DNA of 62,894 nt, counting the filler, from an uncultured Methanosarcinales archaeon (lineage in GTDB: Archaea > Nanobdellota > Nanobdellia > Woesearchaeales > JAGLXL01): assembly GCA_964472345.1 (NCBI GenBank). It is 21 parts of 21 records of this genome, joined end to end, with 100 filler letters (N's around TTAATTAATTAA, not from the genome) between each part and the next. Parts side by side here need not be neighbours in the genome. Positions count along the whole stretch, not along the records: positions 34,627 to 37,433 come from CAYYLB010000101.1; 20 more parts are not named here. One strand, 5' to 3'. The position numbers and the translations under genes were made by a program. Shown here in pieces: positions 26,283 through 57,789 of the stretch; within the stretch, counting starts at the first letter, position 1; each line of letters opens with the position of its first letter. The notes beneath the pieces were generated by a model. It had not been told where the DNA came from. It did not search any database and worked only from the letters and a program-made list of their open reading frames with translations.

Positions 26283-28063
26283 TTTCCTTCATGGGTATTC
26301 TTCTTCGCCGCCGCGTCCAGCTCAATATGCAGCTCCTTCAGGTGCTTCGCATCGGCTGCGCTGGGAGAGCCGTCCATCGGATTCTCGGCTGCCTTTGACT
26401 TCGGGAACGCAATCACCTCGCGGATATCACGCAGCCCGCAGAGCATCGCGCAGATCCGGTCAAAGCCGAACGCAATGCCGCCGTGCGGCGGCGCGCCGTA
26501 GCGCAGCGCCTCAAGGAAGAAGCCGAACTTGCGGTGCGCATCCTCCTTTGCATAGCCGAGAAGCTGGAAGACCTTATCCTGGATGTCATGCTGGTGGTTC
26601 CGGATGCTGCCTCCGCCGAGCTCAATCCCGTTCAGCACGAGATCGTACGCGCGCGCTTTCACTTTCGCAGGCTCTCTGTCCAGCAGCGCAAGGTGCTCCG
26701 GCTTCGGCGAGGTGAACGGGTGGTGCATCGCGTCCCACCGCTTCTCCTCGTCATTCCACTCCACGAGCGGGAAGCCGGTGATCCAGGTGAAGCGCAGCTC
26801 GCCGTCCTTGATCAGCTTCAGCTCATTGCCGAGCTTCAGCCGGACCTTGCTCAGCACCTCATTGCACTTCTTCGCTGCATCCGCGACAAACAGGAGCACG
26901 TCGCCCGGCTTCGCAGCCATCGCCTTCACCAGCGCCTTCTGCTGCTTCTCGTCGAAGAACTTCACAATGTTGCTTTCAAGCCCCTTGTCCGTCATCTTCA
27001 TCCACGCCAGCCCCTTGGCGCCCTGCTCCTGCGCAAAGGCGATGTACTCCTCGAGCTGGGTGCGCGTGAAGTCTGCTTTGGCCGCGTTGATGCACTTGAC
27101 GATGCCGCCGCCTTTGGCTGCATCGGCAAAGACCTTGAACGAGGACGCTTTCGCGATCTCCGTCACGTCCACCAGCTCCAGGCCAAAGCGCAGGTCCGGC
27201 CGGTCAATGCCGTACTTCGCCATCACATCGTCATAGCTCATGCGCGGGAAGGGTGTCGTGAGCTTCTTTCCGGCTGCTTCCTTCCAGATTGCTGCCACGA
27301 GACCCTCCGCCATCTGCAGCACGTCGTCCTCCTCGACAAACGACATCTCGATATCGATCTGCGTGAACTCCGGCTGCCGGTCCTCGCGCAGATCTTCATC
27401 GCGCAGGCACCGCGCCAGCTGATAGTACCTGTCAAAACCGGCAATCATCAGCGTCTGCTTGTACAGCTGCGGCGACTGGGGCAGTGAGTAGAACTTCCCG
27501 GGATGGATGCGGCTCGGCACGATGTAATCGCGCGCTCCCTCGGGCGTGTGCTTCAGCAGCAGCGGCGTCTCAATCTCGAGGAAGCCGAGCTTGTCCAGGT
27601 ATGCCCGGGCTGCCCGTGCAGCAGTATGCCGCGTGACGAGCTGCCGCTGCATGCCCGGCCTGCGCAGGTCAAGGTAGCGGTACGTTAACCTGGTTGCTTC
27701 GCTCGGCACCTTCCGGTCGTCAATCTCCATCGGCGGGATCTCCGCCTGGTTGAGGACCTGCAGCGCGTCGGTGAAAACCTCGATGTCGCCTGTGGCGAGT
27801 GCAGGATTTTTCATCCCCGCGACACGCTCCTTCACCACGCCGCGCGCGGCGATGACGTCCTCACGCCGCAGCTTTTCTGCTGCTGCATGGGCCTGCTTGT
27901 GGAATGTCGGGTTGAAGACGATCTGCGTGAGCCCGTAGCGGTCCCGCAGGTCGATGAATATCACGCCGCCGTGGTCGCGCCGCGCGTGCACCCAGCCGCA
28001 GAGCGTGACTGCATGATCGACGTCGTTCGCCCGTAATTCCCCGCAGGTATGCGTCCGCAGCAT
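26279..28063 (-). CDS. aspS: Aspartate-tRNA ligase, bacterial type with GAD insertion (likely non-discriminating)
   Basis: MLRTHTCGELR, RRDHGG, TPEGARDY, LPQSPQLYKQ, DRQPEFTQIDIE, GAPPHGGIAFGFDR. Confidence 0.96.
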   Translation of the reverse strand: MLRTHTCGELRANDVDHAVTLCGWVHARRDHGGVIFIDLRDRYGLTQIVFNPTFHKQAHAAAEKLRREDVIAARGVVKERVAGMKNPALATGDIEVFTDALQVLNQAEIPPMEIDDRKVPSEATRLTYRYLDLRRPGMQRQLVTRHTAARAARAYLDKLGFLEIETPLLLKHTPEGARDYIVPSRIHPGKFYSLPQSPQLYKQTLMIAGFDRYYQLARCLRDEDLREDRQPEFTQIDIEMSFVEEDDVLQMAEGLVAAIWKEAAGKKLTTPFPRMSYDDVMAKYGIDRPDLRFGLELVDVTEIAKASSFKVFADAAKGGGIVKCINAAKADFTRTQLEEYIAFAQEQGAKGLAWMKMTDKGLESNIVKFFDEKQQKALVKAMAAKPGDVLLFVADAAKKCNEVLSKVRLKLGNELKLIKDGELRFTWITGFPLVEWNDEEKRWDAMHHPFTSPKPEHLALLDREPAKVKARAYDLVLNGIELGGGSIRNHQHDIQDKVFQLLGYAKEDAHRKFGFFLEALRYGAPPHGGIAFGFDRICAMLCGLRDIREVIAFPKSKAAENPMDGSPSAADAKHLKELHIELDAAAKKNTHEGK

Positions 28064-28105
28064 AGGGCGCCAAAAAAGAGGGCCGTTTATAAACATTGTG
28101 AGGGA

Positions 28106-28308
28106 GCGGCTCTGTAGAAAAAGTGGCCGTAGCATTAAAAATCCCAGCCACAGCAAGCTGTAGGGATTTTTAAGCCTCAAACTGAGTAACTATAAATCGC
28201 AGCAAGTATGGTTGTTCTCGCAGAACAGACATGCTCAGAAGAGCACTTCTGTTGCTGCGGAGTATGTACTCAGTTTGAGCAATCAAAACGCCGCGGAGCG
28301 TTTTGGTG
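28106..28308. repeat. Multi-hairpin non-coding element, truncated by contig end
   Basis: Stems TTAAAAATCCC/GGGATTTTTAA, CTCAAACTGAGTA/TACTCAGTTTGAG, CGCAGCAA/TTGCTGCG, CAAAACGC/GCGTTTTG; end motif GCGGCTCTGTAGAAA. Confidence 0.75.
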
Positions 28309-35083: not shown

Positions 35084-35231
35084 GAAAATGTGGTGCAGGT
35101 GCCCGCGTCGCCCGCCCGGCCCCCCGTGCAGCGTCATGGCGCAAGCCCTCACAACAATCCCGCGGCCATTTCCAAAGGCCAACTCGTCAACCCACCATAT
35201 TTATAAACATCATCCATCTCGCGCCAACCGT

Positions 35232-35339
35232 GGGGCCGTCGGCTAGCTTGGTAGGCTTCACCCTTGGGGTTTGCATGACGCAGACAGACTGGGTGCGACG
35301 GGGGTTCAAAGCAGTCCGGTGAAAATCCTCCCGGCCCCA
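35232..35339 (+). tRNA. tRNA-Pro(GGG) with two introns (20 nt at 37/38: 35270-35289; 15 nt at 59/60: 35311-35325)
   Basis: Acceptor GGGGCCG/CGGCCCC, anticodon stem CACCC/GGGTG, T stem GGGGG/CCTCC; BHB-like junctions; TTTATAAA upstream. Confidence 0.9.
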
Positions 35340-35349
35340 TCTTTCTTAG

Positions 35350-35530
35350 GGCTCTTGTGAAACCCTCTCGCCTGCGCTCGGCACTGCCCGTTCGCTCGCG
35401 CTTTTTCCGCGGTTCTCATTCCCGGTGCACCATTGGTTCTTCAGCAAAGAAAAAGCGTGCCCTCGCGCGACTGAAGTTTGCCCCTGCTCGCTCACCATCA
35501 TAAGGCAGTGCATCGGGTTTCACCAGAGCC
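35350..35530. repeat. 181-bp MITE-like structured element with 16-bp terminal inverted repeats
   Basis: GGCTCTTGTGAAACCC / GGGTTTCACCAGAGCC (1 mismatch); nested GCACTGCC/GGCAGTGC and GCGCTTTTTC/GAAAAAGCGT. Confidence 0.8.
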
Positions 35531-35574
35531 ACTCTCAGAAATATTTATAAGAGCGCCTTCCGTTGGCCCGGAGC

Positions 35575-37143
35575 ATGCAGGCAGACGAAAGCGTACACTG
35601 GGCTGACCGGGCTGCGGAGCGCATCATCAGGGAAAAGGGCGACAATGAGCAGTACACCATCGCCGCAGGCATCACCCCCAGCGGCATCGTGCACATCGGC
35701 AACTTCCGGGAGATCATCACTGCGCATCTCATCGAGCGCGCACTGAAGGACAGAAAGAAAAAAGTGCGCTTCATCTATTCCTGGGACGACTACGACGTCT
35801 TCCGCAAGGTGCCCGTCAACCTTCCCGGGCAGGAGGAGCTGAAAAAGCACCTGCGCAAGCCGGTGTCCGCTGTCCCCGACCCGTTCGGCTGCCATGAGAG
35901 CTACGCGCAGCATTTTGAGAAGCAGGTGGAAGAAGCGCTGCCTGCCGTCGGCATCCGCCCGGAATTCATCTCCCAGCAGCAGATGTACCGGCGCTGCGCA
36001 TACGCGCAAAAGATTCGGCAGGCGCTGGAGCAGACCGCGGCGATAGCCGTCATCCTCAACCGCTACCGGAAAGAGCCGCTTGCCGCTGATTGGCTTCCCA
36101 TCACGGTTTTCTGCGGGCGCTGCGGCAGGGACACGACGCGTGCCACCTATGACGGCGGGTACCAGCTCACCTACACCTGCACGTGCGGCGCGCGCGAGAC
36201 CATTGATTTCCGGAAGGCGGGCATCGTCAAGCTCAAATGGCGGGTCGACTGGCCCATGCGCTGGTCGTACGAGAATGTCGATTTCGAATCCGGCGGCAAG
36301 GATCACTTCGCTGCAGGAGGCTCGTACGACACGGGCAGGCAGATCTCCACCGCAGTCTGGAAACGCGAGCCCCCCGCCTCCCTCCGCTACGAATGGATCG
36401 GGATCAAGGGCGGAGAGCAGTTCCACAGCTCAACCGGCAACGTGGTGACACTGCAGCAGCTGCTGGAGGTGTACGAGCCGGAAGTCGTGCGCTACCTGTT
36501 TGCCTCGACGCGCCCCGAGGCCGAGTTCGCAATCTCGTTTGATGCAGATGTGATCAAGATCTATGAGGACTTCGATGCCTGCGAGCGCGCCGCCTTCGCG
36601 CAGCATGCCGTTTCCGCCAAGGAGCAGGCCAAGCAGCGGCGCATCTACGAGCTCAGCTTCATCGGATCGCTGCCTGCGGGCATCCCGTTCCAGCCGAGCT
36701 TCCGCCACCTCACGACCATCCTGCAGATCCACCAGATGGATTGTGAAAAGGCAATCGGGTTCCTCGAGCACGAATTGCGGGATGCACACGGCCGCAGGCG
36801 CCTTGAGCAGCGGGCGCTCTGCGCGAAACGCTGGCTCGAGCAGTACGCGCCGGAACAGTACCGCTTCACCGTCCAGGCAGAGGTCCCCGAAGGACTGCAG
36901 CTGGGCGAGAAGCAGCGTCAGGCGCTGAAGATCCTTTCGCAGAAGCTGCGCGGGCGCGACTGGACCGACATCGAGCTGCACGAAGAGTTTTACGTCCTCT
37001 GCAAGAATCTCGGGCTGAGCAACACGGACTTCTTCGAGGCGGCATATCAGGTGCTCGTCAACAAGCCAAAAGGGCCGCGGCTCGCGAGCTTCATCCTTCA
37101 CATAGGCAAGGAGCAGGTGGCGGAATTGTTCGAGGGGGTGTGA
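35575..37143 (+). CDS. lysS: Lysine-tRNA ligase, class I
   Basis: HWAD, AGITPSGIVHIGNFRE, WRVDWPMRW, GGKDH, GPRLASFI. Confidence 0.97.
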   Translation: MQADESVHWADRAAERIIREKGDNEQYTIAAGITPSGIVHIGNFREIITAHLIERALKDRKKKVRFIYSWDDYDVFRKVPVNLPGQEELKKHLRKPVSAVPDPFGCHESYAQHFEKQVEEALPAVGIRPEFISQQQMYRRCAYAQKIRQALEQTAAIAVILNRYRKEPLAADWLPITVFCGRCGRDTTRATYDGGYQLTYTCTCGARETIDFRKAGIVKLKWRVDWPMRWSYENVDFESGGKDHFAAGGSYDTGRQISTAVWKREPPASLRYEWIGIKGGEQFHSSTGNVVTLQQLLEVYEPEVVRYLFASTRPEAEFAISFDADVIKIYEDFDACERAAFAQHAVSAKEQAKQRRIYELSFIGSLPAGIPFQPSFRHLTTILQIHQMDCEKAIGFLEHELRDAHGRRRLEQRALCAKRWLEQYAPEQYRFTVQAEVPEGLQLGEKQRQALKILSQKLRGRDWTDIELHEEFYVLCKNLGLSNTDFFEAAYQVLVNKPKGPRLASFILHIGKEQVAELFEGV

Positions 37144-37273: not shown

Positions 37274-37357
37274 GCCCTTGTAGCTCAGTGGCGGAGCGCG
37301 TCCTTGGTACGCTCAACAAAAAGGACGAGGTCGAGGGTTCAATTCCCTCCAAGGGCT
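37274..37357 (+). tRNA. tRNA-Thr(GGT) with 12-nt intron at 37/38 (37310-37321)
   Basis: GCCCTTG/CAAGGGC, GCTC/GAGC D stem, CGTCC/GGACG, GAGGG-TTCAATT-CCCTC. Confidence 0.92.
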
Positions 37358-57211: not shown

Positions 57212-57468
57212 AGGGCGTCATTGAAAAGCTCGCCAAGGGACCAGTGAGCGCCTTGGGCCATGTACAAAGCCTAGCGGACGCTGCACGTTCTCCGCGCCTC
57301 GGGCTCTGCACGAGGCTCAGGAAAAGCGCACTTTTCCGCATGGCGAACGGAAACTTTTCAATAACCGCAGGTCAACTGATAGCGGTTTTGAGCACAACAA
57401 ACTCTCGGAGTTTGTGTGCCCGCACTCATAGAGCGCTCGGCACACCCATAGTGTTTCAATAACGCCAC
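57212..57468. repeat. Multi-hairpin MITE-like element with 13-bp terminal inverted repeats
   Basis: GGCGTCATTGAAA (57214) / TTTCAATAACGCC (57454); internal hairpins GCCTCG/CGAGGC, GGAAAAG/CTTTTCC, ACAAACTC/GAGTTTGT. Confidence 0.75.
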
Positions 57469-57486
57469 GAAAGCGTTATAAAGTGC

Positions 57487-57789
57487 ATGGCCTTCATCGC
57501 TGCGATGAAAAATGAAAAGCTCAGACCCATCAAGGCCATAATAGCCAAACTGCTCAAATCGAGAGGCATCGCCAGGGCAGGGATTTTCGGCTCCGCTGCG
57601 AGAGGTGAGCAGGGCCATCGAAGCGATATCGATGTGGTGGTTGAATTTAACGGGGGCCTCTTGGAACTCGTAAGGCTGGAAAGAGAACTCCAGGGGCTGT
57701 TAGGCCGCAAGGTCGATCTCGTGACCTATAATGAGATCACTCCATTACTAAAAAAAAGAATATTGGATGAAGAAGTAAGGATACTATGA
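57487..57789 (+). CDS. MNT (MntA-like) antitoxin
   Basis: IFGSAARGEQGHRSDIDVVV, LLGRKVDLVT. Confidence 0.92.
   Translation: MAFIAAMKNEKLRPIKAIIAKLLKSRGIARAGIFGSAARGEQGHRSDIDVVVEFNGGLLELVRLERELQGLLGRKVDLVTYNEITPLLKKRILDEEVRIL

Follow-up and report, generated by a model that had tools for sequence, protein, structure and literature searches.

Two intervals of an uncultured archaeal genome, here called element 1 and element 2, are bounded by inverted ends in which a variable five-base box (N5) separates a conserved outer box from a conserved inner one, and we asked what kind of element carries such ends. The first-pass annotation of this DNA had offered two readings, namely MITEs from GGC-ended IS5-like elements and folded ssDNA/RNA substrates analogous to integron attC sites. 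The window, i.e., the whole stretch of 62,894 nucleotides that was analysed, is a chain of 24 short contigs (C90-C112) with runs of N and a TTAATTAATTAA linker between them, and distances across the joins are therefore meaningless. Element 1 comes from contig C101, element 2 from C110, and a third, single end from C98, where it lies 200 bases short of the contig's end. The genome behind the window comprises 1,264,057 bases in 120 contigs at 57% G+C, with completeness rated at 100% and contamination at 0.31%. We infer both a Woesearchaeota-type DPANN archaeon as the host and the name of its order.

Ends, copies and target duplications

The reported ends were all recovered. Element 1 starts with GGC-TCTTG-TGAAA at 35350 and closes with TTTCA-CCAGA-GCC at 35530, and element 2 starts with GGC-GTCAT-TGAAA at 57214 and closes with TTTCA-ATAAC-GCC at 57466. 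The third end lies at 28106-28120 of the minus strand. Compared as inverted repeats, the two N5 boxes within each copy agree at 4 of 5 positions. Within the window the motif is not enriched: a 14-nt end pattern with up to one mismatch gave 20 matches against 17.8 (sd 4.0) expected from 100 shuffles, 33 of which reached 20. In the whole genome the end motif is clearly commoner than chance, with exact ends recurring 34 times (TTTCAATAACGCC), 10 times (TTTCTACAGAGCC) and, for several others, three to five times each, among them TTTCTACGAAGCC, TTTCACCAGAGCC and TTTCACCGGAGCC with five each. Pairing of opposite ends 70-1000 bp apart yielded 47 candidates, 14 of them with a perfect 8-base flanking direct repeat and six with 7 of 8 bases repeated, and filtering by TIR likeness or flank repeat left 33 two-ended copies of 132-337 bp from the pattern search of the 1.26-Mb genome.

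The TIR of each copy is 13-20 bp long and has the form GGC-N5-(A/T)GAAA, and the two ends of a copy agree at 14-19 of 20 nt across the 33 copies (16 of 20 in element 1). With a one-base register shift allowed, the flanks repeat 8 of 8 bases in 19 copies, 7 of 8 in seven and at most 6 in seven, so that 26 of the 33 copies carry a direct repeat of at least 7 of 8 bases. Most copies of subfamily A have a duplication of 8 bp, five other copies have one of 9 bp, and the duplicated bases have little sequence preference of their own. BLAST with the 33 copies returned 85 intervals covering 11.8 kb, approximately 0.9% of the genome, and the copies are single and scattered over many contigs, with no arrays. 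Small, non-coding and multicopy, with TIRs and a target duplication of fixed length, the family has the properties of MITEs.

Four subfamilies were distinguished, and further end types exist. Subfamily A ends in GGCGTTATTGAAAAGTTC, subfamily B in GGCTCTGTAGAAAAGTGGCC and GGCTTCGTAGAAAAGTGGCC, and subfamily D in GGCTCCGGTGAAAAAGTCCGGCGCC and GGCGAAGGTGAAAAAGTCGGGCGCC; in subfamily C, GGCTC-N4-GAAACCC continues into TCTCGC at one end and into GATGCAC at the opposite end. Two other genomes (G002 and G060) contain small MITEs with A-type ends, 8-bp duplications and, by eye, the same layout relative to promoters. In public Woesearchaeota-type records a partner end was found at 13 of 24 archaeal loci, 134-270 bp in length, with a flank repeat of 8/8 in five of the 13, 7/8 in five and lower in three.

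Element 1 (35350..35530) is a 181-bp MITE copy of subfamily C. Its left TIR (35350..35365, plus strand) is 16 nt long with one mismatch to the right TIR (35515..35530, minus strand), the element is 62-72% identical to five full subfamily C copies, with approximately 45 bases conserved at each end, and the only ORF over it is a minus-strand frame of 55 aa. It is an old, diverged copy. The flanking 8-mers, TTTCTTAG (35342..35349) on the left and ACTCTCAG (35531..35538) on the right, are the two copies of a decayed target duplication, alike at 5 of 8 positions. A tRNA-Pro(GGG) gene (35231..35341, plus strand) adjoins it as first described, with its 3' end 8 nt before the element. This tRNA seemingly has two inserts, a 20-nt intron in the usual place and approximately 14 nt in the T arm; it was missed by Rfam and by ARAGORN on the intact window, and ARAGORN called it only once a script had removed the second insert (13-17 nt near 35306-35325). 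On the same contig, just past the lysine-tRNA ligase gene that follows element 1, lies another tRNA-Pro (anticodon TGG; 37274-37357) with a 14-nt insert.

Element 2 (57214..57466, 253 bp), described at first as one element, proved to be a composite of two MITE parts without a flanking duplication. The first part (57214..57368) is by eye a subfamily A copy, much like the 157-bp copy at C58:5706-5862, with its inner end altered to AACCGC for AACGCC. The second (57369..57466) contains a hairpin module, 17 nt of which are identical in C42 in another MITE family, and the right end of a further subfamily, 89% identical over 28 nt to C26:11914-11941. The flanks of element 2 repeat at 1 of 8 positions, or 4 of 8 with a one-base register shift. 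The third end opens the first 201 bp (28108..28308) of a subfamily B copy that is cut by the end of contig C98 and resembles the 337-bp subfamily B copy at C8:19766-20102.

The original observation therefore stands in part. The ends are as described, and the statements that no target duplication is visible and that the interiors are unrelated are limited to the two copies on which they were based. The duplication went unseen because elements 1 (5/8) and 2 (1/8) belong to the seven copies that repeat at most 6 of 8 bases. The interiors of elements 1 and 2, which are of different subfamilies, are indeed unrelated, whereas element 1 shares with full copies of its own subfamily the identity given above.

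Two more repeat families were noted outside the window. One is MITE-like, with a different inverted repeat at its ends (GGGGTTGGTGCGAAAT...; C70:3641-3775, C38:10150-10246, C24:1297-1414 and C49:76-208), and has an inner module (CGGCACTGCCAGCTCGCTCCGC) in common with subfamily C. The other has the ends GTTTAGCACC...GGTGCTAAAC (C2:14619-14708 and, with flanks, C42:7589-7718), and its hairpin module, AACCGC-AGGTCAACTGA-GCGGTT, recurs within element 2 at 57363-57390.

Placement relative to promoters

The first-pass annotation had missed the position of the copies at promoters. To guard against circularity, we built a BRE/TATA matrix of 16 positions from 882 crude-ORF upstream regions away from any copy (consensus R-A-A-A-N-N-T-T-T-A-W-A-W-A), and we compared it with 42 copies, namely the 33 two-ended ones and nine with ends set by eye; 25 other inspected intervals were left out because they were incomplete, lay at contig ends or belonged to other families. 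A site scoring 8 bits or more, with the first T of TATA 13-15 nt outside one end, was present in 36 of the 42 copies (30 of the 33 found by pattern and six of the nine set by eye), the distance being 13 nt in four, 14 nt in 24 and 15 nt in eight. The same condition held for 0.9% of 20,000 positions drawn at random and, when the draw was confined to DNA outside crude ORFs, for 3.0% of 20,000. In 31 of the 36 copies an ORF of at least 50 aa starts 18-60 nt past that T, most often at 30 nt (11 copies), with 31 nt in four. The mode at 30 matches a genome-wide peak of AT-rich octamers at -31/-30 from start codons, so that most mRNAs are leaderless. The order of features is thus TIR, duplication, BRE, TATA and a leaderless start codon approximately 30 nt past the first T.

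The distance follows the length of the duplication, as 14 nt goes with 8-bp duplications (19 of 24) and 15 nt with 9-bp duplications (5 of 8), which indicates a fixed promoter-near cut, at the upstream edge of the 6-bp BRE, and a variable far cut. As judged by eye from their flanks, copies of subfamily A lie in either orientation relative to the promoter, approximately eight in each.

Two of the three copies noted at the outset follow this rule. Next to element 1, the BRE/TATA of the lysine-tRNA ligase gene (35538..35551, plus strand; 16.6 bits, matrix site at offset 7) contains TTTATAAG with its first T at 35544, which is 13 nt beyond the end of the element and leaves 31 nt to the ATG at 35575. 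The ORF that starts there (35575..37143, plus strand) was read by eye from its sequence as a class I lysyl-tRNA synthetase, and it is 55-60% identical to single-copy homologues in four of eight same-family genomes. Outward from the third copy on the minus strand (28086..28107), the duplication (28100-28107), BRE (28094-28099) and TTTATAAA (28086-28093) follow one another by eye, with TATA 14 nt out and a minus-strand ATG at 28063, 30 nt past the first T.

Element 2 is one of six exceptions, together with the copies at C12:19841, C18:13208, C18:15932, C5:16798 and C5:13281. Its nearest BRE/TATA (57469..57484, plus strand; 15.2 bits, matrix site at offset 2) has GTTATAAA from 57475, and with TATA only 8 nt outside, element 2 breaks the 14-nt rule. 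The ORF beyond it (57487-57789) has its listed ATG only 12 nt past TATA, and an in-frame ATG at 57505 lies 30 nt past; the latter fits the leaderless rule better, so that the listed start is probably too early. The copy at C5:13281-13412, old and decayed, seems to lie between a TATA and the start codon of a gene on the minus strand. It and a neighbouring copy stand on opposite sides of that TATA, a palindromic TTTATAAA, each at 14-15 nt (C5:13281-13630 = L205:7482-7831).

Taken together, the pattern points to promoter-edge-directed transposition, and the copies are very probably MITEs, non-coding deletion derivatives of IS5-family insertion sequences (IS) of Woesearchaeota-type (DPANN) archaea that were placed by such targeting. 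A DDE transposase made in trans would bind the ends and move the element, and it would cut the target with a stagger of 8-9 bases to leave an 8- or 9-bp duplication. The transposition machinery itself would pick the promoter edge, and it may recognize either the BRE/TATA sequence or DNA bent by TBP/TFB. If the transposase does aim at the promoter edge, the mobile element would have a safe harbour in a genome with almost no spare DNA, where insertion breaks neither gene nor promoter.

The same distribution might arise from near-random insertion of MITEs with no targeting, if selection in a compact genome kept only those copies that lie just upstream of promoters. The genome is small, with crude ORFs of at least 150 aa already covering approximately 75% of it; an insertion within a gene, or between its TATA and start codon, would do harm; and the one copy seemingly on the gene side of TATA is the decayed one at C5:13281-13412. 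Selection surely removes insertions inside genes and promoters, and its contribution could be the purging of such harmful insertions. It does not explain, however, why the distance is exactly 14 nt in 24 and 13-15 nt in 36 of the 42 copies, against 3% for random non-ORF positions, since sites further upstream or between convergent genes would be equally harmless. Moreover, the distance moves by one base with the duplication length, and autonomous IS of other genera obey the same rule (see below). We therefore consider selection without targeting improbable and retain promoter-directed insertion.

No empty site was seen in the four relatives compared at the lysine-tRNA ligase locus, where the upstream neighbourhood is unconserved and holds no tRNA, or in four public DNA runs compared, as contigs, with an 11.5-kb segment carrying four copies.

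Variable boxes, hairpins and folding

The alternative that the elements are structured small RNAs, or attC-like RNA/ssDNA recombination substrates whose terminal helix is kept by compensatory change, bears on the N5 boxes, which had been taken to covary between the two ends of a copy. Agreement between the two N5 boxes is 5/5 in 18 copies, 4/5 in six, 3/5 in six and 2/5 in three, and its mean of 4.18/5 lies above the 2.56 obtained for shuffled partners (sd 0.27, maximum 3.58 in 2000 shuffles), a comparison that gives no probability because the copies are kin. Fifteen of the 18 perfect cases are from one subfamily. In subfamilies B (four copies) and D (two copies) the N5 boxes of the two ends are unlike in a fixed manner, and unlike boxes were found in three subfamily pairings, e.g., TCCGG/GAAGG, which agree at 2/5. 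The apparent covariation arises because each subfamily has its own N5 and is thus a mark of subfamily identity; as the boxes differ in a fixed way in B and D, their agreement elsewhere reflects common descent within a subfamily, with no need to pair.

The folds themselves are strong. Element 1 as single-stranded DNA reaches -34.9 kcal/mol (z = -3.2), and subfamily A copies fold at -61 to -128 kcal/mol. Subfamily A (17 copies, of which the window includes only 57214-57368) is modular, with a 133-bp base form to which one to three hairpin cassettes are added to give 157-272 bp, and its interiors are GC-rich hairpin modules that are present or absent among copies of 132-272 bp. At least one inner stem of this subfamily shows a two-sided change (GCTCGA/TCGAGC versus GCGCGA/TCGCGC). 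Three of the subfamily A loops read TGCG on the same strand. Folding energy has no strand bias, as the strand with UGCG loops folds better in seven and worse in 10 of the 17 copies.

The strong folds, the N5 agreement above shuffled partners and the two-sided change in the inner hairpin would suit such an RNA or recombination substrate. Target duplications flank the copies, however, and whole subfamilies have ends that differ at 2-3 of 5 N5 positions; both strands fold equally well, and subfamily A meets the promoter in both orientations. Rfam models matched only one tRNA in the window at gathering score, and the region around element 1 (35150-35600) gave no match even at E up to 1. Integron attC sites do resemble these elements in their imperfect inverted repeats, where a variable middle lies between conserved outer and inner boxes, but they stand in cassette arrays beside an integrase gene and lack target duplications, whereas the copies here are single, scattered and flanked by duplications. 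This second reading of the first-pass annotation is accordingly very unlikely, and descent of the copies from insertion sequences is pursued below.

Source insertion sequences and known systems

A 1023-bp IS with TIRs GGCTAATATGAAACCCT / GGCTTTTGTGAAACCCT was found at L168:689-1711 in a genome of the same family. Its 309-aa protein matches NF033579 (IS5 family) with an E value of 8e-39 and 133.8 bits, against a cut-off of 140, and it also matches PF01609 (45.8 bits, cut-off 23) and PF05598. PF01609 is present in 139 of 401 genomes of the order and L168 homologues at E up to 1e-10 in 71 of the 401; genomes G139, G320 and G377 are included in these tallies, and no sequence-level claim rests on any of the three.

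From the loci returned by the L168 homologue search, 15 IS of 893-1023 bp were delimited by their ends, and their TIRs equal the MITE subfamily TIRs of this genome over 13-16 nt. The right TIR of element 1 equals the right TIR of a 937-bp IS in L182 over 16 nt, and the first 13 nt of its left TIR equal the right TIR of the L175 IS. The shorter variant of subfamily B (C8, C10) matches the L199 TIR at 15 of 16 positions, and the C75 copy equals the L184 TIR over 16 nt. The best match of eight further IS transposases was NF033579 in all eight cases, above the cut-off in four. For 12 of the 15 IS the locus includes both flanks, and six of these 12 have a perfect 9-bp duplication. A promoter site with its first T at 14-15 nt accompanies 10 of the 15 autonomous IS, as judged with the matrix from this genome; the related genomes (26-48% G+C) are AT-richer than its source, so that chance matches are commoner there. 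The derivation from GGC-ended IS5-like elements is thus supported by the TIRs, by the 8-9-bp duplications and by IS5-family IS with the same TIR types in related genomes. IS ends together with an ordinary duplication were named at the outset as the outcome that would make these elements plain MITEs, and this is what we observe. The original finding reduces to a known kind of element with one unusual property.

No cognate IS was found for subfamily A, the nearest TIRs matching at approximately 12 of 16 positions. Searches of this genome with PF01610, PF12762, PF01609, PF00872, NF033572 and NF033517 found no transposase; NF033529 (ISLre2) also gave no match here, a blank that is uninformative as the model matched in no control genome. 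As no transposase gene was found in the assembly, either an IS missing from it moves the copies or they have become stranded. A tblastn search of this genome with 11 IS proteins gave a single match (E 2e-4), to a PIN-domain gene that is not a transposase. This false match lies at L210:1135-1804 (C16), where a 172-aa gene and a 79-aa gene overlapping its start were read by eye as a PIN-domain toxin and antitoxin. The 30 best PF01609 loci of the order contained no IS with these ends, and the TIRs of ISHvo2 (Haloferax) and of an IS5-family gene of Methanomethylovorans gave nothing clear.

Co-option of the MITEs as insulators or upstream modules of host promoters, with their position kept for that role (e.g., through a factor that binds the TIR beside the BRE, or through hairpins that halt read-through into the promoter), would fit a TIR that always ends 8-9 nt from the BRE and GC-rich hairpin modules that are added, lost and common to MITE families with different TIRs, yet it is highly improbable as the explanation of the placement, since copies in both orientations and with several unlike TIR types occupy the same place, kilobase-long autonomous IS stand there too, which fits an insertion preference better, and co-option would add to targeted insertion rather than replace it.

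Targeted insertion of MITEs was then compared with known systems. IS5-derived prokaryotic MITEs are likewise 130-340 bp long, non-coding, mostly intergenic and present in many copies, with the TIRs of full-length IS and 8-9-bp duplications; the difference is that nearly all copies here occupy one fixed spot against BRE/TATA. IS903 of the IS5 family also measures approximately 1 kb and has one transposase of approximately 300 aa, a 9-bp duplication and ends starting with GGC, and its inverted repeat presumably resembles GGCTTTGTTGAAAACT (L183). A tblastn search of 72,556 plasmids with the L168 transposase returned 122 records, all below 60% identity. The ten genera named among them are haloarchaea and Roseomonas, with no enterobacterial genus and no genus that bears IS903, and the best match is an archaeal IS5-family gene at 31%. 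The Ty3 and Tf1 retrotransposons of yeasts are steered to promoters by contact of the integration apparatus with the transcription machinery; they are eukaryotic retroelements with integrases, whereas contact with TBP/TFB is only proposed here.

MITEs of IS5-type IS are ordinary, and their density in Woesearchaea is already in print: a 2024 census (PMC11602168) reports a Woesearchaea genome with 105 MITEs per Mb. What is unusual here is the placement at the promoter edge; in that census, the word "TATA" does not occur and "promoter" occurs twice. We found no description in the literature of insertion at the BRE edge in archaea, and the supplements of PMC11602168 and PMC3942029 may list insertion sites. 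The nearest parallel in bacteria is DDE transposition of the TnGBS conjugative elements and the ISLre2 family, which takes place 15-17 bp upstream of sigma-A promoters and in one preferred orientation (PMC3942029). Both systems thus insert at a fixed distance upstream of promoters, but TnGBS/ISLre2 uses a Mutator-like transposase and -35/-10 elements of bacterial hosts, whereas an IS5-family transposase, archaeal BRE/TATA and both orientations are involved here. Membership in the TnGBS/ISLre2 group, which is marked by a p-MULT 3 transposase, was considered and rejected, as IS with these ends encode IS5-family proteins instead. Archaeal ISH6 prefers an AT-rich, TATA-like target (AANATNTT), whose likeness to archaeal promoters its authors note (PMC3942029). 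It shares with the present family the taste of an archaeal IS for such a target, but it is Mutator-like and duplicates the AT-rich motif itself, whereas the duplication here is little biased in sequence and TATA stays intact 6 nt away.

A bolder version of promoter-directed insertion is possible but doubtful, namely that IS5-family transposases of DPANN archaea read the core promoter in its assembled or bent state (TBP/TFB on BRE/TATA) and cut exactly at its upstream edge, and that the MITE hairpins insulate tightly packed genes. If true, this version would give Archaea a DNA transposition system directed at promoters, a counterpart of Ty3 with TFIIIB and of TnGBS with sigma-A promoters. A transposase that aims at the promoter edge could also be used to probe archaeal promoter architecture or for promoter-directed insertion. 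The copies mark real promoters of an uncultured archaeon at single-base precision, and they explain part of the fragmentation of such assemblies. In the public DNA contigs compared with the 11.5-kb segment carrying four copies, breaks and raised depth occur at the copies, and one joint skips 52 bp inside a copy.
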